In this document: positions 828 through 50,892 of the stretch, one piece after another
How the letters are laid out: each line of letters opens with the position of its first letter
Position numbering within the stretch: position 1 is the stretch's first letter
Notes under the pieces: generated by a model
Database searches by the model: none
What the model was told of the DNA's origin: nothing
The model's input: only the letters and a program-made list of their open reading frames with translations
Position numbers and translations under genes: made by a program
From: Camelus ferus
Taxonomy: Eukaryota
Assembly (NCBI RefSeq): GCF_009834535.1
Contig: NC_045696.1
Coordinates: forward strand, 61,444,001-61,508,000
Direction of reading: 5' to 3'
DNA: 64,000 bases

Positions 828-3663
828 CTATCCTCAAAAATAAGGAGACCAGGGGTTGAGGAATAAGTAAGAAAAGCCCCACCAACCTCAGTAGAAAACT
901 GGGTTGTCCCTCAGCTCAGGTTGTAGCACTAGACTTTTGAGAGTGACTACTGTTGCTGCATTTGCAATCTTCTGAGCAACAGAGAAGCAAGATGCTAGAA
1001 TGTGTGGCCATTGGTGTGTCTTTCTCTCTCTGAAGAGAATGCAAATCCAAATTTCTATCCATTTACCTGGTATGCAGGTCCTTGAATGGGTAACCATATT
1101 TCCAAGCCTGTGTCTGATTGAAGGATGAGACATCAAACATGCAAAAGGGACCATCTTTCAGAGCTACTCCAGAAGTGATAAAGCAAATCAAGGCTCCAAG
1201 CAAAGCCAGGCCACTTGACAACAGAACAGTAAGCATCTGCAGATGGACAGAAGAAACAGTGAGCCTGAGATGGGATCGTGGCTAAGTAACTGTTGGGGCG
1301 ATCTGGCCAAGTCTAACTTCTCTGGTGCTCAGGCTTTCCCCCATCATGGGGATAATCCGACCCACAGCACCTCCTATAAAGCAGAACCAGGGTAGGGTTG
1401 GCTGATGAGGGGTTGGCTGGGTAGAGCCAGGAAGAGATGAAGAGAAGGGCAGAGAAGGAGGAAACACTGGCACCTGGACCCGGCAGCAGGCTCAGCCTGA
1501 TTCAGCAGGCTCTTCTGAGCATCTCAGCAGATTGGCATCAATAACTTTTACAGACTGCAGCCATTCAGCCTCTGCGTTAAAGGGTGGGATTTGTTATTGC
1601 AAGCCCACCTCTGAACTTTTTACGGGAAATCTGTATTTTTTCCAAAATTCCAAGTTGCCATCCCTGACTTCTCTCTTTCTCAAATCAAGCATGAAAAGAA
1701 AGAAGAGCAGAATGGGGGAAAGGAGGAAGGAAGGAAGGGAGGAAGGGAGGGAGGGAGGAAGGGAGAAAGAGAGAGAGACAGAGAAATTCCAGTCAACTCT
1801 GAAATGATTCCAGTTCTGTCACTGTACTTTTCTAGTCTGTACACCACTTCCCTCCCAAAATATAACAATGTGTTTATTTCTTGGCAGGATTCTAACTTCC
1901 AAATTGGTTTCTTTCTCAGGATACTAGATTTTTTTCTCTCCTTCCTAAAGAACACATATTTTTAAAATTTAAATAAAACATATACATATATATATATATA
2001 GTTAGTATACAGAATCATAGAGTCATTTCCCACTGATGTCAAGCTGGTTTGGAACTTGGGAAGGGCCACAGAAACGAGCATAGAAAGTATTAACTCTAAG
2101 TTAAAAGATTCAAGATGAATTAGTCTGAGATAAGCCTAGGACAGTGGTACTCAGAATGTGGTCCCTGTCCTAGGAATATCATATCACTTGAAACTTAATT
2201 AGAAACGCGAATTTTCCCACCCCAGACCTACTGAGTCAGAAAATCTAGGGGTGGAGCCCAGCAATCTGTGTTTTAACAAACCCTGCAGGGACTCTGATGC
2301 ACCCACGTAAGTCTAAGAACCACTTGCTTAGGGGAAAACTAGACGTTGACAGAGAACAGAGAGTGAATGAAATGTGTGGGTGTTTTTATTTAATTCTTTA
2401 ACATACATTTCTGAATCAGTGGGGTTCCCAACATGTGGGCTGCAGATATCAAAGCAGGCTGCAGAGTTACTGTAAGGAGGCCACAAATTTCATGTGTCTG
2501 GGACTGAATGAGCAATATAGTTTATACATTTATGTACTGAGTTTTTTTCAAATATATAGATGCTGCTATAATTAATAAAATGCAAATTTACTCTGGGCCT
2601 CAGTTTCATTATCTGTAAAATGGAGAGGTTAGACTAGAATCTAGTTATTACATGATCTCTGGAGAAACTTCCAGCTCTAAGAAAAATTAAGCAAAGGAGC
2701 TAGGAAATTTTCTATCAGTGACACATGACTCATACCCATATTGTTCAGTAAGCTAAAACTAACAATAAGAACCTCACATCTGTGTTTACGTTTATAGTTC
2801 ATTAAGCACGTACTCCCTTGACTTGATCTTGTTCACTCATATTTTTATAGATAAGGACCTGAGGTTGAGAAAACTTGCCCAAGAGTTTAGAGTTTCTGAA
2901 GGGTATGGTCAGGATCTGACTTCAAACCCTAAGACTGAAATTTCCTCTTTACCGTTCTGTCTCTAAAGTAATAGAATGTGGGGACATTTTAGGTATTAGA
3001 AGTGCTTACGCTTCGGCAGGGCCCACTCTTACTGAAGCAGCCATATCTCCAGCCCATCAAGGAGATGAGGGTAGCTGCAGTGAAGACCTGGGAGAAAAGA
3101 GAGGAGGGTTAAGAAGAGATAGGGTTATTTACATTTCTAGCTGTCATCTATGGCAGTTGAAATAGAGTGGTTGGATACTCCACATGGACTTAATTATCCC
3201 ATCTTTCCCAGAGGGTTTGGCTTTGCCTAGCAGGACAATTTTGGATAACTAGCTTGATGTGACTCTGTGGATGACAATGTTCATACCCAGCCTGCCTAGT
3301 CCAAAATTCAGTAGCCTTTGACCAGACTTCCTAGAGTCTTCTATAGAAGACTGCTGCTATAGACCCAGGATCAGCTTGTTCAAACTTTTCTATGAGGAAT
3401 CAAAACAGTCCCCACCCTGAGCTCACTGCTCCACCCCTGAGGGGCACTTTGGGAGTTCACACCCAGTGAACCCGGACACTTACCATGAGGCCTCCTCCCC
3501 AGAGCCCAGAGCCCAGCATGGCATGCCTGCCAATGAGGCCCCTCAACAGGTAGGTCACATCCCAGTTAGGAAAGAGGAGCACTGTGTTGGCTGCAGCAGC
3601 AAACAGGGCTGTAGTCCCAAGGCTCAGCCCCAGGATGCGGGAGCAGGTCCGTGAGCATGCCAT
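647..3663 (-). CDS. TM4SF19: TM4SF19 (transmembrane 4 L six family member 19), spliced CDS join(3484..3663,3010..3087,1067..1236,647..827), 202 aa
   Basis: Spliced translation MACSRTCSRILGLSLG..NWDVTYLLRGLIGRHAMLGSGLWGGGLM/VFTAATLISLMGWRYGCFSKSGPCRS/MLTVLLSSGLALLGALICFITSGVALKDGPFCMFDVSSFNQTQAWKYGYPFKDLHTR/NYLYDHSLWNSVCLEP..LCGK* matches the L6 tetraspanin-like TM4SF19. 180+78+170+181=609 nt, all introns GT-AG. Adjacency to UBXN7 matches known mammalian synteny. Confidence 0.96.
1067..1236 (-). CDS. TM4SF19: TM4SF19 coding exon 3 (170 nt)
   Basis: CTGCAG|ATG acceptor, AG|GTAAAT donor; encodes MLTVLLSSGL..GYPFKDLHT(R). Confidence 0.95.
1690..1785 (+). repeat. Purine-rich low-complexity tract (GGAA/GGGA/GA)n
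   Basis: Directly visible 'aggaggaaggaaggaagggaggaagggagggagggaggaagggagaaagagagagag'. Confidence 0.85.
2142..2326. mobile_element. MER5A-like hAT-Charlie MITE
   Basis: Ends cagtggtactcag...aagaaccactt; internal 'ccccagacctactgagtcagaaa..gggtggagcccagcaatctgtgttttaacaa' is characteristic of MER5A (from recall). Confidence 0.8.
3010..3087 (-). CDS. TM4SF19: TM4SF19 coding exon 2 (78 nt)
   Basis: Pyrimidine tract + CCCAG|GTC acceptor; AGC|GTAAGC donor; encodes VFTAATLISLMGWRYGCFSKSGPCRS. Confidence 0.95.
3484..3663 (-). CDS. TM4SF19: TM4SF19 first coding exon (coding part 180 nt; exon starts at 3685)
   Basis: Acceptor TTCCAG|G at 3686/3685; ATG 3663-3661 in strong context ACAATGG; donor ATG|GTAAGT at 3484/3483. 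Confidence 0.9.
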
Positions 3664-4069
3664 TGTGCGGGGAGAGGATAGAGTCCTGGAACCAATGGAA
3701 GGAGGGTCATGGTAGCTTTGTGGACACTGTGAGCTGTGGGTAGAGGAACCCCTGGAGCATAGGGTGGGGTAGAGGAAATAGACAACAGACCCTGTCATTT
3801 CCCAGGGTCAGATCAAGAAGAGCCAAGGAACTCGCTTAAAAACTCTACCTCTTACAAATATTCCCTAGTGGATTGGATTTACCCTATTTTCCACCAACCT
3901 CCACTCACTCACACGCACACACACACACACACATGCACACTCTCCTCATCCCATCATAATTTGCTTGCACCTCTATTACCAGCAGATTATTTCTATTTGA
4001 TACAGAAAAACTAAATATTAAAGATGTCATCTTCTTGCTTTAAAAGATGTCATTTTAAAGATGTCCACT

Positions 4070-8409: not shown

Positions 8410-9400
8410 TTGTTAATTTAGGTATTACAAACAGTAAAATGCATAAATCTTAATTATAAAAATTGAATTGTTACTTGTGCACCTAGAGTAACCACACACA
8501 GATCAAGATATAGCATATCTCCAAATCCCCAAAAGGTTCTATCGTGTCCCTCCCATCATTATCCCTGTCCTAATGTTAAATATTCCATTTTGAATTTTAT
8601 CATCAATTAGCTTTTGGCATTTCTTGAATTTCATATAAATGGACTCATATAGTGTGCACTTTTTTGTCTGGCTTTCTTCACTCAATTTTATATCTGTAAG
8701 ATTCATCCATCATATAATTCATTCTTTTTTATTATTCCATTGTATGACATATTACAATCTATTCTGCTATTGATAGACATTTATTTTCAATTTTCGCCTG
8801 TTATAAATGATGCTACTATGAATATTCTTATACATGCCTTTGGAGAAGCTATGCACTAATTTTTCTAGGGATTATACCTAGGATTGGAATTGTTGGGTCA
8901 TAGGGTAGGTGAATGTTTAATTTTGGCAAATAATATTGCCAGTTAACCAAAGTGGGCCTACTAATTTACACTCCTGCCAGTGCTGTATGAGAGTTCGGTT
9001 GCTTCACATTCTTACCAACATCTTAAATTAAGCCATTCGGGTAGGTGTTTAGTAGTGTCTGACTGTGGTTTTAATTTGAATTTTCTTGATGAGTTAGTGA
9101 CTTTTCATATACTGATTGGCCATTTGGAGATCCTTTTTTGAGAAGTGCCTGCTCAAGTCGTTCGCCCAATTTTTACTGGTTCTTTGTCTTTTCCTTTACT
9201 TGTAGGAGTTCTTTATAATTCCAGGTATGAGAGCTTTGTGAGATATATGTATTATGAATGTTTCTTCCTTCTGTAGTTTTCACTCTCTTACTGTCTTTTC
9301 ATTAAGAGCAGTTCTTGATTTTAAGTAAGTTCTGTTTATCGATCTTTTCCTTTATGATCACTTCTTTTTGGGTCCTGTTTAAAAAAATCTTTGCCCACTT
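8410..9400 (-). mobile_element. Old L1 (L1M-type) 3' fragment
   Basis: Antisense L1 motifs 'tttttgtctggctttcttcactcaa', 'ggattggaattgttgggtcatagggt', 'gtggttttaatttgaattttcttgatg'. Confidence 0.8.
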
Positions 9401-9964
9401 CCCACAGCATTTTTATTTACCCATGCTATTTAGGGCCTCTTCCTTCACAACTGTGAGACTCTTCAGGGCAGAGAGCCTGTATCTTATTTTGCTTTGTAGA
9501 TCCAAAATCCAGTATAGAGCTTGGAACAAAGTGGAATTCAGGAATCATTTAATTAATAAAATAATTTATGCACTGGATGAAGTAACACACATAATCTCTC
9601 TGCACAGAGATTTTACTTCTAACAATGAAAACAAACAATATTGAGAAAACCCTTGATGCATATATATGAGAAGGAATAATTACAGTAGCTATCACATTTC
9701 TTTGCTGCATATGAGCTGCTTTCTATGTATGACATTTCTATGTATGCAGATATATATGTGCCTGACACAAAAGCTGGTAAACAACTTATTGAAAAGTTCA
9801 TTAAATAGGATCCAGTTTTCATTTTCATGGTAAAAGAGAATCATTTAGAGCCCAGATGAATTCTTGGGTCTCCCCCAGAGAATTGAATTTTGATAGAAGA
9901 TTCTAGGCTGAGGGGGGCTCACAAAGCTTTACAATTAAGAAGAAACATTTATTATAAAACACAT

Positions 9965-27183: not shown

Positions 27184-30010
27184 TGTGTGTGTGTGTAATG
27201 CCTTAACAAAGAATTCTACTTAAGTAAAATTTCTGAGTAATGGGGGGGGCGGATTCTGTACAACCCCTTGGCAAGCACCCATAGCTTTTCCTTAAATGAG
27301 CACTTTATTCTAGGTGATAACTTAAGGAACTGGTTTCATCACTGCATAAGATTGGACTGCTAAAGTCACAGCCTCTAAAACTAATTTTATCCTCACTGCC
27401 ATCAAACCTAAACAGTTCCTACAACCAATCTGAGATTCCCACATCTTTGAAGGTCTCTTATTTGCAACTAATCTTGGTATCAATTATCAAATAGGCCTGC
27501 TTAATAATACTATATTATAGAAATTAAATACAGAAGTAATCTTTGGGTGGATCTGGGAGCCAGGTCCTAAAGCTACATAATCAGTAATAATGCCCAACTA
27601 CACCATGAGAATTTTTCTAGAAAAAAATACCATTTCCACTGCTGCTTAGACCTGGATTCTGAAAGTTCAAGCAATGCTAGTCATGAAGAAGTGGATTCCT
27701 CTGTCACCAGCTTGCCAGATCAGTCCTCCTGCTCACTGCTACATATTCACATTGTTTACTTCTAAATCCAAGTCTTAGGTCAGATGCCTAACCCTAGCTG
27801 CAAGGGAGCCTGGAAATATCAATCTTTTAATTTCATTGAGAAAATAGAACCCTTATGTGGGAAACTACCAAAATACAAGGTAAGATGTTGTACAACCACA
27901 AACTATAACTGTCCACCACTTATATTATCATCTTTACAATCTTAACTGCAAACATTTTACAAAAGACATTTTTATACAACTACACTTAATTGCGCATCAC
28001 CACTTCTTAGGTCATACTTACTGAACGGGCACATTTCTTGGGGGGACTGCTAGAAAGTCCATCCAGTTGCCCATGTTCACCCAGAAATCCCGTAACTTGG
28101 TCCAAGAAAGAAGATACGTCTAACTGGTGCCACTCAACCAGCTTCTGACCTAAAGATTAAAAACCAGGATATATAAATATAACAAAATCAGCACTCTTTC
28201 TGAATTCTAAGTATTTCTTTTGGCATATACATAATTAAAAATTATGGGGGCACATCCCCACCCATCACCAGCCTAAGTTACACAGTGTCTTCATAACCCA
28301 GAGGATACATTAATTATAACCAACCTAAGAGATTCCCAGCCATCCTGATAAGAGCAACTACTTTATCTGCTGATATCTTTTATTGCCATTTAGGAGATTC
28401 AGATAAAACAATACCAATATAAAACTCAAAATCAATTAATAAAAAAACCAACTCTACCCTCCACTTCTCTGGTGGGATTACAATCACTACCTGAATAATC
28501 TTAACATTATAATGACCTAAGGAGATCCCTTAAAAATGATAAGGAAAATAAAGTTATTTTTTGAAAGAACAGAAATGCACAAATATAAAATAAGTTGTTG
28601 GAAACAGACTCCCTAAATATATACATCAATGGATGTTTAAATAATTATAAAGGGCATGAACAAGAACCCTTTGCCTAATTTAATACAAACAATTTTTTTT
28701 GTATTTCTCTTTTTTTTATTTCTAAAATTTGGTTTTTTAATTTTTTAACTTTTTTATTGATTTATAATCATTTTACAATGTTGTGTCAAATTCCAGTGTA
28801 GAGCACAATTTTTCAGTTATACGTGAACATATATATATTCATTGTCACATTTTTTTCTCTGTGAGCTACTGTAAGATCTTGTGTATACTTCCCTGTGCTA
28901 TACAGTATAATCTTGTTTATCTGTTCTACAATTTTGAAATCCCATCTATCCCTTCCCACCCTCCGCCCTCTTGGCAACCACAAGTTTGTATTCTATGTCT
29001 ATGAGTCTATTTCTGTTTTAATACAAACAATTTTGAAACTAGACCCAGTCAAACAGTAAAGATCAATTATTTAGGTAACTGAAAGATAAATGATAGGTTA
29101 AAGGCCATAAGCTGAAATAAATCTTACCTGTCCGAGGATCCAAGATGGAAACATAGGGGAAATCCCCTAGCTTATAAAACTGTATGTATCTCTGACCTTC
29201 CTCACTGTCGTGATAAACCTGTTAAGTCATTGATATATATATATATAAAATAAATCAGCATCTTAAAAAAGTACCAACTATATTCTTGTTATATACCAAC
29301 AGCAATTAATTCTCCAAAAACACCTTTGGTATATGTTAGGATCTCACTCCTCCATTAAAGAGGAAATGAAGGTTACCTGGTGCGAACTCCCTCCACTTCC
29401 TGCCCTTAGTCACTTCTGGAAATTTACATAAACATAGCAATTCATTCTTCCTCCCTTCCCAGTTCAGAAGAAAAGAGGTATTGCCCTTTCTTTCTTTTTT
29501 AATATTTTATTCATTCATTTACTATTGTATATTTTATTCTATCTTATCTTGGCAAGGGAAGATAATTAGGTTTTATTTTTAGAGGGGATATAGGAGATTA
29601 AACCCATGACCTCAAGCATGCTAAACATGTGCTCTACCACTTGAGCTATACCCTCCCCATTCTTCCTTTCCAAATTCTCTGTCCACCTACATCACTCCTG
29701 ACTCTCAACCACATACATCTTAATAAATCACAATATATTAAGATTATAAACTCAAGTGCCTAGCATAGTGCTAGGCAAAGAGATGCTCAAACAACAGTCA
29801 CTGTATAAAAGGTTACCATTCAGAAAAAAACATACTGAATTTAGGGGAATATAAAACATGAAGAGGCAAATTACTAACATTAATAGCATACCTTGTAGTG
29901 TGAAGAAAATTAAGTTCATTCAGAAGTTTCTAACTATCCTTTTTTTAAAACTGAAGTATAGTTGATTTACAATGCTGTGCTAGTTTCAGGTGTACAATGA
30001 AGTGATTCAG

Positions 30011-47100: not shown

Positions 47101-50100
47101 GAAACAATATTACTCTAGATTCTGGAACTAGATAAAAGAGTATTCCTAATACTATTTGACTTTTTAAATCCAATTTAGTAAAAATAAAAAACCATGTCTT
47201 TTGCCTATTCTTATTTAAGGGGATTCCTCTTATTTAGTATCTCATGTTGTAAACACTGAAGAGTTATAAGGGACTATGAGTATTAAACACTTATTTAAGG
47301 ATCTTTGAAATTTTATTTCAAAAATCAATGTTTTCCTTTGAGTAGCATTCATTCTAGTATTTTCCAGAGACTACTGGAATTTGGCCTAACAGATATTCAT
47401 TTCAAACTCTCACTGGTGTCAAATATAGAGGATAGAAAACATCAAATCTGTTCACCATTTATTACTATTCTCTATATATTAAGTTGTATATACTGAAGGT
47501 ACTTTAATAATTAGCTACATATAGCTATTTAAGGTATAAAGGATTAGAATTACTTATCAAAAATTTTTCATGACAACTCAAAACTTTCCTGGGACAATGG
47601 AGGAAAATCTAGAATTGGGAAATCTGAGTTTTACTGGGCTTTAGTTCCATATCTGCTGCTTAATTGCTATATAGCTCAGGGAAATGGCTATGCTTCTGCT
47701 TTCTCTGTAAAATGTGGATAATAATGCCAGACTATAGGATTCTTTTGAGTATTATATAGGCTTGACAGTGCTTTAGAGAATTTAAAGCATATAGGTATAA
47801 AAATTTCCACCTAACACATTTTCAGATGCTTTCAACCTTTCATTTGTTCAAAAACAAAGAATTAACCTAACTGATAAAAACATAACTATTCAATTTTGGC
47901 AGGGGGTAGCTCCCAATAATAAATAATAAATTCATACTCGGTGTGTGGTCTGACAGTGGAGACACTTGCAGAACTGGTACTGGGCTCTTCAGCGATTCCT
48001 CCACCATCCAAAAACATAGTGACTGCCATCTCCAGATTATTGTTGCAGGCTTCAAGCATATGTTTCCCTACACTTTCACTTGCACCTGAAATGGTATAGT
48101 AACAGGGGAAACATTTTAAAAAGACACCTTCTTACATTCAGTTCACATTAGAATACAGAATTCTCAAGCAAATTGATAATACTTCTCCCCCTTAGAATGA
48201 ATTTAAAAACAGAAAGGTCTGTTTGTTTACTTCCACACTGTTGGCTGATTAGTGTGAAATATACAGAGCTAGAAAAGTAGTAGCATTAAAATAGTAGTCT
48301 TCCTTCATAATAAAACAAAAACTAAGTAAAGCCTTTATTTGCCATTTCTTTAAATGGACCAATTATATATTTGTTACTAAACTGAAAAAGAAAAAGACTA
48401 TATTCTAGAAAGTTAGAAATACTTTGTTAGAAAGAATGCATTTCACTTAATTTGTTTCTATTAAAAAGAAAGCATTTTCATAACAACAGGAAAGAAGGGA
48501 GATGAGACATTTTTGTCAAAGATATAACTAAGTCAAAATCTGGTAAGAAATGTCAACCTTTATCATTTAAAACTGGCCCTATCACACACTTACTCATTTA
48601 TACAATAAAGCCAGCATAATCTGCTCAATGTAAGGTAAACTGGTAAAGCCCTTTAAGAAAGCAACTTTAAAACACATATCAAGAAACATAAAAATACTTT
48701 TTTGACTCAGCACTTTGGGCTTCTAAATAAATCTGTATAAAATATATGCATAAACATATCCATATATGCATCCAATATAGCTTCATTTAATACTGAAGAA
48801 AACTTAAGTGTCCAGTACTAGAGTCTAAACTGAAGAATCTATTTGGTGGAACATTCTGCGGCCATCAAAAAGTGTATAAGGCTTTCCATATGGGATGACT
48901 TTCTATCTCAATTGCGTCCCTTAGAGTCTCCTTCAGTGAGGTTGGGATGGGGGTTGGGGGTGTGGTGAAGGCTGGGGTTTTTTTTTTCGGTCTGAAAATG
49001 CCTTTATTTTGTTATTGTTCCTGAAAGACAGTTTCACTGCATACTCTATTTTAAGGATGACAGCTATTTTCTCTTAGTACATTGAAGATAGCATTCCAGT
49101 GTCCTCTGGCTTCTGTTGTTGCTTCTGGGAAGTAAGCTGCCAGACTAAAGAAAAACATTTTTATAGCAATATGTTGTTTCTCTCTAGATGCTATAAAGAT
49201 CTTCTTTGTCTTTGGTCTTCAGGGCTGATTTCATTTATCCTCCTTGGGATTCACCGGACTTCCACCATAATGATTGTTATCTTTTATCAGTTCTGAAAAA
49301 TTCTCAGATATTTCTATTTAACAATTATCTTACTCCACCATTCACACTTATTTCATTCTGGAACTCCAATTAGGTGTATGTTAGAACTCTTCACTCTATG
49401 CTGTGACAATTTGTTTTTTGTTCACTAAGCTTTTAATTTCAGTTTATTTTTCACAACTACAAGGTCTTAGAGTTTTTTTTCCCCCTAATCTGATTGGTCA
49501 TGTTTCAGAGACCCTTACTTCATACTCATATTTCAATCCTTTCATTTTTTTCAAATATATTAATCAAACTTACTAAAATTACTAAGAAAAACTTTCTGCA
49601 GTCTCTAGAAGTCACTGTCTCTTATTTCTGCTGGCTCCTGCTCACTGTGCCATGGTTTTTGTGCATTTTGTGATTTTTTTTTTTACTATGATCTCAAGTG
49701 TCTTGAAATTTTAACTTGCAGACTTTTATTTTTTTTCTTTTATTTATTTTTTATTGATTTACAATCATTTTACAATGTTGTGTCAAATTCCAGTGTAGAG
49801 CATCATTCTTCAGTCATACATGAACATATATACATTCATTGTCACATTTTTTTCTCTGTGAGCTACCATAAGATCTTGTGTATATTTCCCTGTGCTATAC
49901 AGTACAATCTTGTTTATCTATTCTACAATTTTGAAATCCCGTCTATCCCTTCCCATCCTCCACCCCCCTGGCAACCACAAGTCTGCAATCTATGTCTATG
50001 AGTCTATCTCTGCCCTGCATTCATGCTCTGTTTTTGTTTTTTTTGGTTTTTTTAGATTCCACACATGAGCGATCTCATATGGTATCTCTCTCTCTCTTTC

Positions 50101-50892
50101 TGGCCCACTTCACCCAGAATGACACTCTCCAGGTGCATCCATGTTGCTGCAAATGGCACCATGTTGTCAGCTCTTATGGCTGAGTAGCCTGAAGAATTTT
50201 AAACCCTGGGCTGAAGGTACATTCCTCCTAAGAGGATATGATTTGATAGATTTTGTAAGGTACCTGAGGGCACTACCAAACAGGGACTATTTAAAATACA
50301 TTCTTGACTTAAAAGTTTTATAAGACCACATGGTAAATGTGACCCTGTAAGGACCCTTGCTATAAATTCTCAATGAAGATATCTTCTGCCACTCCCCAAA
50401 TGCCAAGGTCCCAGCTTCATGAATGGGAGGGGTCTCCTTTCAGATTCCTCTCCTTAGGAAAGCTGCAGGCTTGTTTCCTGTTTCCTGTGCCCTATGAGGC
50501 TATCAAAAGAGAAGTTCAAAGCCATCCAGTTTGAGCAGATTTCACAACGGTGAAAGCTTACTTTAAAATCTAGCTAACATCTCATTTCCAATTTCATTTC
50601 ATTTTTAGCCTCTGATTATTCTGTACTTTCTTGCCAGCTCAATGATATATTTTGAGTTTTTATTCAGGATTTTTTTTCTCAGTTGGGAGGGTTATTCATA
50701 ATCTCTCTTTAGTTTAACCCTACTGCCAGAAATGGAAGTGCTAACTCTACTCTTAATATCTTTCATTTGTTTTCTCTTCTTTACTACTTTGTCTAAGGTT
50801 TTTAAATCAAGTCCCTAATTATTCTTACCTGGATTAGTATAATAGGCCCCTAACTGATTATCATTCTATCTTCTACCTTGCTGCTGAGGTTA

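Follow-up and report, generated by a model that had tools for sequence, protein, structure and literature searches.

Strand-bound A-to-G clusters in L1 copies of Camelus ferus that probably record ADAR-edited RNA fixed by retrotransposition

Editing of RNA by ADAR can become a change in DNA when the edited molecule is reverse-transcribed. In cultured cells, the human L1 machinery wrote ADAR edits into 3 of 235 pseudogene insertions described in PMC11702581, and A-to-G clusters of the ADAR type are described in proviruses, in the 3'LTR of BLV and, as cited in the same source, in HTLV-2 and STLV-3 (PMC8025556). ADAR1 and ADAR2 are described as binding the L1 RNP and restricting L1 largely independently of editing, and in these two cell-culture studies expressed L1 RNA appeared unedited by Sanger sequencing (PMC5224506, PMC8677026). 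The literature searched, mostly outside subscription journals, contained no report of an ADAR-edited L1 fixed in the germline. Here we describe an L1 copy in the 2.09-Gb genome of Camelus ferus whose differences from its relatives are predominantly A-to-G on the sense strand, together with further copies changed in the same way.

The window analysed is a stretch of 64,000 nucleotides (NC_045696.1, positions 61,444,001 to 61,508,000). The focal L1 is a 440-bp L1 3' fragment at 49753..50187 on the minus strand of the window, and it and its surroundings comprise the following features.

49753..50187, minus strand: L1 3' end, 5'-truncated, with 28 sense A>G among 35 differences in the paralogue alignment
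49960..50187, minus strand: dense zone, in which 23 of 46 A after A/U are changed and which reaches to within 14 bases of the truncation point
49753..49959, minus strand: sparse zone adjoining the tail, in which 5 of 54 A after A/U are changed
50052..50186, minus strand: end of ORF2, comprising its last 44 codons and the stop
49753..50051, minus strand: L1 3'UTR
49728..49752, minus strand: remnant of an A-rich tail (T-rich on the plus strand), identified from the sequence
49715..49727, no strand assigned: candidate target-site duplication, left copy, with 10 of 13 bases matching the right copy
50188..50202, no strand assigned: candidate target-site duplication, right copy, which terminates in TTTT/AA
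28733..29019, minus strand: unedited sister L1 3' fragment in the same orientation, 91-92% identical, which serves as a comparison copy and not as a pairing partner
47886..48128, minus strand: exon of the host gene KIAA0794 downstream of the focal L1, within a stop-to-stop frame

Two hallmarks of target-primed reverse transcription (TPRT), an A-rich 3' tail and a 5' truncation, are present in the focal L1, and TTTT/AA is a site of the L1 endonuclease type. Long sister copies carry, on the same strand, an ORF2 with endonuclease and RT domains. Between 49715-49727 and 50188-50200, 3 of 13 bases of the candidate duplication differ, which exceeds the expectation for a copy diverged by 2%. The focal L1 appears to sit in intron 1 of KIAA0794 (which we take to be an alias of UBXN7), sense to the gene; the exons are numbered in this way because an ATG-bearing frame lies near 62.2 kb. 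Its flanks, from about 48.9 to 50.5 kb, are presumably an old L1 fragment hosting the young insertion. Minus-strand frames at 3457-3807 and 495-1281 presumably bear exons of another gene that lies downstream of KIAA0794; they resemble TM4SF19 and a neighbouring gene.

A preliminary description of this locus had counted 24 differences in 269 bp between 49748-50016 and the sister copy at 28751-29019 (14 T>C, 3 C>T, 4 G>A, 1 A>G and 2 transversions), and the count was reproduced exactly. For a broader reference, we took the majority letter in each column of 29 paralogues, drawn from the 39 other genomic copies with the highest scores, and excluded the variable T/G tract at 50030-50053. Against this majority, the focal L1 has 35 differences in 411 columns, consisting of 28 T>C, 2 C>T, 2 G>A and 3 transversions, with 0 A>G. 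As the element lies on the minus strand, 28 of the 35 differences are A>G in the sense of the L1 RNA, in agreement with the preliminary description, and the asymmetry between the strands is strong (in plus-strand letters, T>C at 28 of 170 and A>G at 0 of 97; P = 1.5e-6). The paralogues carry a mean of 2.7 T>C (range 0-9, n = 29; Poisson P = 4e-19 for the 28 of the focal L1) among a mean of 10.8 differences in total, a contrast that is conservative because the paralogues were picked for their likeness to the focal L1. The 7 remaining differences are close to the paralogue mean of 8.1, so that the focal L1 looks like a copy of ordinary age that underwent a single burst. Most of the T>C sites (22 of 28) fall in columns in which T is kept by 93% or more of the paralogues, and the remaining 6 are polymorphic in the family. 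Sense G>A changes, the type that APOBEC would leave in a cluster, number 2 among the 35.

The changes are equally selective in their neighbours. By 5' neighbour in the RNA, 11 of 36 adenosines were changed after U, 17 of 64 after A, 0 of 35 after C and 0 of 34 after G (31, 27, 0 and 0%), that is, 28 of 100 after A/U (WA sites) and 0 of 69 after C/G (P = 8e-8). The preliminary description had stated that the edited adenosines follow A or U and that a 5' G is avoided; A/U precedes all 28 changes and 5' G is indeed spared, with the correction that 5' C is spared equally. It had also placed the T>C changes most densely towards the right, and the WA sites bear this out, with 5 of 54 changed left of 49960 and 23 of 46 right of it (P = 1e-5). 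Relative to a sister copy, the A>G-type changes in the end of ORF2 recode K>R, T>A, N>S, S>G and I>M. With 0 of 35 adenosines changed after C, the focal L1 taken alone fits a pure WA mutator equally well.

The C alleles do not form a common subfamily consensus, a circumstance that the preliminary description had named as refuting. The next-best copy is 90% identical (among the 40 candidates scored out of 7,332), and the changed haplotype contains a 24-mer that occurs once in the genome. One 25-mer occurs 10,502 times in its unchanged form, 12 times with two sense A>G and once with two antisense A>G; the ratio of 12:1 overstates independence, because the 12 matches comprise 4 old unbiased copies, 1 borderline copy and 7 convincingly biased ones, with 5 from one derivative family. 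The bases themselves are supported by DNA contigs from two studies (P2 and P6) that match exactly over 49958-50024, a span that holds nine of the T>C sites and to which this support is limited, the sites right of 50024 having no contig among those listed. The two DNA runs come from different studies, and at most one can be the source of the assembly. Of the 24 runs listed, 14, which carry two different organism labels, contain 0.82-0.85 of the 141 words sampled, against only 0.75 of all focal words that are free of T>C sites; this signal, at the level of words rather than proof at the level of bases, hints that both labelled organisms carry the changes. RNA runs contain part of the intron, and the dense zone was without cover in the RNA run. 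In the DNA runs, contig depth among the filtered records was zero over the unique flanks and right of 50027, a figure that carries no weight.

Eight sequence patterns aimed at changed copies returned 92 distinct loci including the focal L1, each scored with the selecting motif omitted. Four were heavily changed (the focal L1 and three more), six were milder copies of a deletion derivative, one was borderline, three had weak patches and 78 were unbiased. The three further heavily changed copies, which are independent of the focal L1, are L043 (C15, near 6.55 Mb; 31 A>G among 43 changes), which belongs to another subfamily, L156 (C14, near 56.49 Mb; 72 A>G among 118) and L159 (C1, near 107.27 Mb; 39 A>G among 83). 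Clear target-site duplications surround L043 and L156. Among unselected controls, 0 of 30 L1 copies and 1 of 30 derivative copies were biased. One pattern gave 17 matches of which L159 alone was changed; two patterns gave 8 new matches, with L156 strong, L151, L153 and L158 showing weak patches and 4 unbiased by the context test; and another gave 3 new matches, with L118 biased and 2 unbiased. An adjacent double change, TT>CC in the end of ORF2 (L090-L116, L176-L200), gave 57 matches, of which 52 were new and none of these heavily changed; it marks mostly older L1s that show no A>G bias.

In the four heavy copies taken together, changes fell on 50 of 126 adenosines after U, 76 of 259 after A, 18 of 125 after C and 6 of 125 after G (40, 29, 14 and 5%), and each step of this U>A>C>G gradient was significant (P = 0.049, 0.0015 and 0.017). 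Use of 5' C was seen in L159 (8 of 26). The changed zones of these copies hold 157 A>G and 16 A>C or A>U. In two copies the zones are sharply bounded inside the insertion: in L156, 69 of 227 A were changed in the 3' 560 nt and 3 of 104 beyond, and in L159, 29 of 121 A were changed in a 340-nt patch and 2 of 149 and 8 of 550 on either side (P <= 2e-9 for these contrasts, with the zones drawn after inspection). The patch in L159 ends at the junction where the derivative leaves the end of ORF2. In the focal L1 and L043 the changes reach the truncation point; L156 runs 300 nt further.

The derivative is a 3.05-kb L1 with 278 junction matches (L077-L083 and L120-L149 in the junction-pattern set), in which the 5'UTR and ORF1 are followed directly by the final ~320 nt of ORF2 and then the 3'UTR, most of ORF2 being absent; it resembles the ORF1-only 'half-L1' elements. 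Six derivative copies have a milder, WA-biased patch. Four of them (L036, which is also L137, L040, L041 and L045) have 12 sense A>G sites in common with incomplete overlap, which L118 and L042 hold in part; all 12 follow A/U, lie within 300 nt at 63-359 nt from the 3' end and are nearly private to the four copies. These four have no other exclusive common letter and few private A>G (3 of 304). The change is lacking in 4 of the 40 unselected cells of this comparison, an excess over the number that reversion at an assumed 1.5% predicts (P = 0.003). The 'rest' rates of unselected copies take in unaligned flanks and were left out of account. In L118 and L042, private A>G fall on 12 of 166 sites after A/U and 0 of 90 others. 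In a tree built from the 5' 1.4 kb of 35 derivative copies, the six biased ones did not come together, though the tree was mostly unresolved and its bootstrap unsettled. The sharing among the four copies reflects either an edited copy that turned source or one source RNA that was edited repeatedly at the same sites. Their incomplete overlap hints at repeated editing, in which case certain source loci may pass identical edits to more than one daughter copy.

The pooled neighbour order is that of the human ADARs on long duplex RNA. From published in-vitro coefficients (PMC3113232), the changes expected after U, A, C and G are 55, 79, 14 and 2 for hADAR2 and 69, 70, 10 and 2 for hADAR1, and the observed counts are close to the hADAR2 expectation. 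A 3'-G preference was absent, both in the focal L1 (3 of 29 with 3' G and 25 of 140 without) and among the WA sites of three pooled copies (15 of 46, P = 0.87). An eight-term ADAR model that extends beyond the nearest neighbour performed weakly on the pooled sites (hADAR1, AUC 0.57, P = 0.014; hADAR2, AUC 0.54, P = 0.13) and did not predict the changes of L156 taken by itself (P = 0.22 and 0.66). Because the 3'-G preference is absent, we class the pattern as one that works like ADAR hyper-editing and not as a proven member of that class.

As a source of duplex, self-folding of L1 RNA was considered and rejected: the longest self-inverted match in three long copies was 27-36 nt, and the longest stack in a sister 3' end was 9 bp. 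A nearby inverted partner was rejected as well, none above 80% identity being found for six copies. In the 74 kb around the focal L1 there is no inverted L1 above 72% identity, which makes editing of the host pre-mRNA after insertion unlikely; in the surroundings analysed for the other copies, there is none at L043 (30 kb) or L156 (20 kb), and L159 has one of 80% at a distance of 8 kb. Elsewhere, at L085, an L1 piece (8694-9886) is inverted to a neighbouring full-length copy with 92% identity over 1.2 kb, and an arrangement of this type could supply a duplex at a source locus.

These observations probably reflect editing by ADAR of an L1 RNA paired with an antisense L1 strand, followed by retrotransposition of the edited RNA in the germline. 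The same origin had been proposed in the preliminary description, and it is supported by the lack of a matching subfamily, the independent copies, the bounded patches and the U>A>C>G gradient, from which we infer ADAR itself. The source L1 transcript would form a duplex with antisense L1 RNA along a few hundred bases. Since no inverted repeat lies within L1 itself, the complementary strand would be either an inverted L1 piece at the source locus, carried by the same read-through or host transcript, or an antisense RNA of its own. Judging from the spectrum and context, ADAR would then deaminate A to I at up to half of the preferred adenosines. ORF2p, target-primed at a TTTT/AA site from the tail, would insert C opposite I, and the change would be fixed as a sense G. 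The edited copy would be inherited and then age normally; the changed alleles are present in several samples. Limits inside one cDNA, as in L156 and L159, would be consistent with a duplex of restricted extent, comparable to the cultured-cell insertions of PMC11702581, whose edits keep to inverted Alu pairs. The duplex or the inosines may have stalled the enzyme at the truncation point, which is no rule because L156 runs beyond its patch. It is somewhat likely, by a narrow preference on our part, that ADAR is a recurrent germline mutagen of L1 and that about one in a thousand insertions, a rough figure drawn from the pattern yields, records an L1/antisense RNA duplex, with the limits of the patch mapping it.

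The main rival of ADAR, which the preliminary description had not considered, is polymerase eta or a Y-family relative that patched the second (sense) strand and placed G opposite template T after A/T. Misinsertion of dGTP opposite T by polymerase eta is described in PMC13716900. The strand and the WA context fit, as do the lack of any change at the 69 adenosines after C/G in the focal L1 and the missing 3'-G preference. WA is a hotspot of polymerase eta, and its spectra are rich in A>T and A>C, whereas the four copies show 16 transversions of A against 157 A>G. The fraction of WA sites changed (29-50%) is far above the error rates of polymerase eta, 5' C is used in other copies while 5' G is avoided (14% versus 5% over the four copies, P = 0.017), and every copy seen has its patch close to the 3' end, in a search that used 3'-end patterns only; we consider polymerase eta an improbable author of the clusters. 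Misincorporation by ORF2p during first- or second-strand synthesis, under an imbalance of the nucleotide pool, would also confine the changes to the sense strand of the L1 and to individual insertions. A pool effect would not be expected to start and stop sharply inside one cDNA as in L156 and L159, the avoidance of 5' G is opposite to a next-base slippage model of first-strand synthesis, and the same 12 sites recur in four derivative copies, so that infidelity of ORF2p seems very improbable.

Just as improbable is a later origin, in which the L1 inserted unedited, the host pre-mRNA was edited afterwards and a cDNA converted the locus. The focal L1 is sense in a host intron that is in part present in RNA runs, as such a course would have it, but the other L1 3' pieces of the host gene share its orientation, the sole inverted one is 72% alike and 40 kb off, and the surroundings of L043, L156 and L159 offer no closer partner than the 80% copy mentioned above. 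That the C alleles are a subfamily haplotype, or the product of biased gene conversion or of assembly error, is largely refuted and has hardly any probability left. The 6 of 28 sites that are polymorphic in the family, the two-base change whose 57 matches are mostly an older subfamily variant, and the sites right of 50024 that no listed contig covers speak for it. Against it stand the 90% identity of the best other copy, the unique 24-mer, the exact DNA contigs in two studies, the excess of words found in 14 runs over those free of T>C sites, zero A>G on the other strand and at most one gain of G/C by transversion.

If ADAR editing before insertion is the correct reading, L1 RNA in the germline is sometimes double-stranded and edited in vivo, in a way that went undetected in cell culture, and inosine-rich RNA can still be reverse-transcribed by ORF2p. 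RNA edits would then be inherited as mutations, here some 28 in a single step within 440 bases, with about 10 residues of the end of ORF2 recoded. Ages estimated from edited copies would come out too high, and their assignment to subfamilies could go astray. As copies with this signature can be tallied in any genome assembly, a role of ADAR editing in the control of L1, if any, becomes directly testable by comparing lineages, ages and patch positions. If ADAR is moreover a recurrent germline mutagen of L1, genomes would hold a datable fossil record of the activity and specificity of germline ADAR, an A-to-I counterpart of the APOBEC-edited retroelements.

Among described systems, the insertions of PMC11702581 resemble the copies reported here in having T>C/A>G changes clustered over part of the insert and ascribed to ADAR acting before reverse transcription. 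As described there, they are somatic insertions of cellular mRNAs with edits in inverted Alu pairs, where the duplex is visible, whereas here L1 sequence itself is changed, the copies are inherited and the partner is absent from the insert. The proviruses of PMC8025556 likewise show A>G within a window with clear limits, made permanent in DNA through reverse transcription; they are described as exogenous retroviruses in somatic clones with windows of ~70 bp and at least 7 changes, in contrast to the patches of 230-560 nt with 28-69 changes in a germline non-LTR element. Hyper-edited RNA clusters share the purity of A>G, the depletion of 5' G and the U>A>C>G order (PMC4365171; rules in PMC3113232), but are described in RNA only and with an enrichment of 3' G that is absent here. 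Relative to the L1 studies of PMC5224506 and PMC8677026, the changed copies imply that on rare occasions an L1 RNA is edited heavily and inserts all the same. The APOBEC-edited retroelements of PMC4866542 and PMC2873906 are alike in form, with a cluster of one type on one strand, bound to a context, in a single copy; the scars described there are G>A left by deamination of C in cDNA, mostly in LTR elements, and those in the camel L1 copies are A>G.
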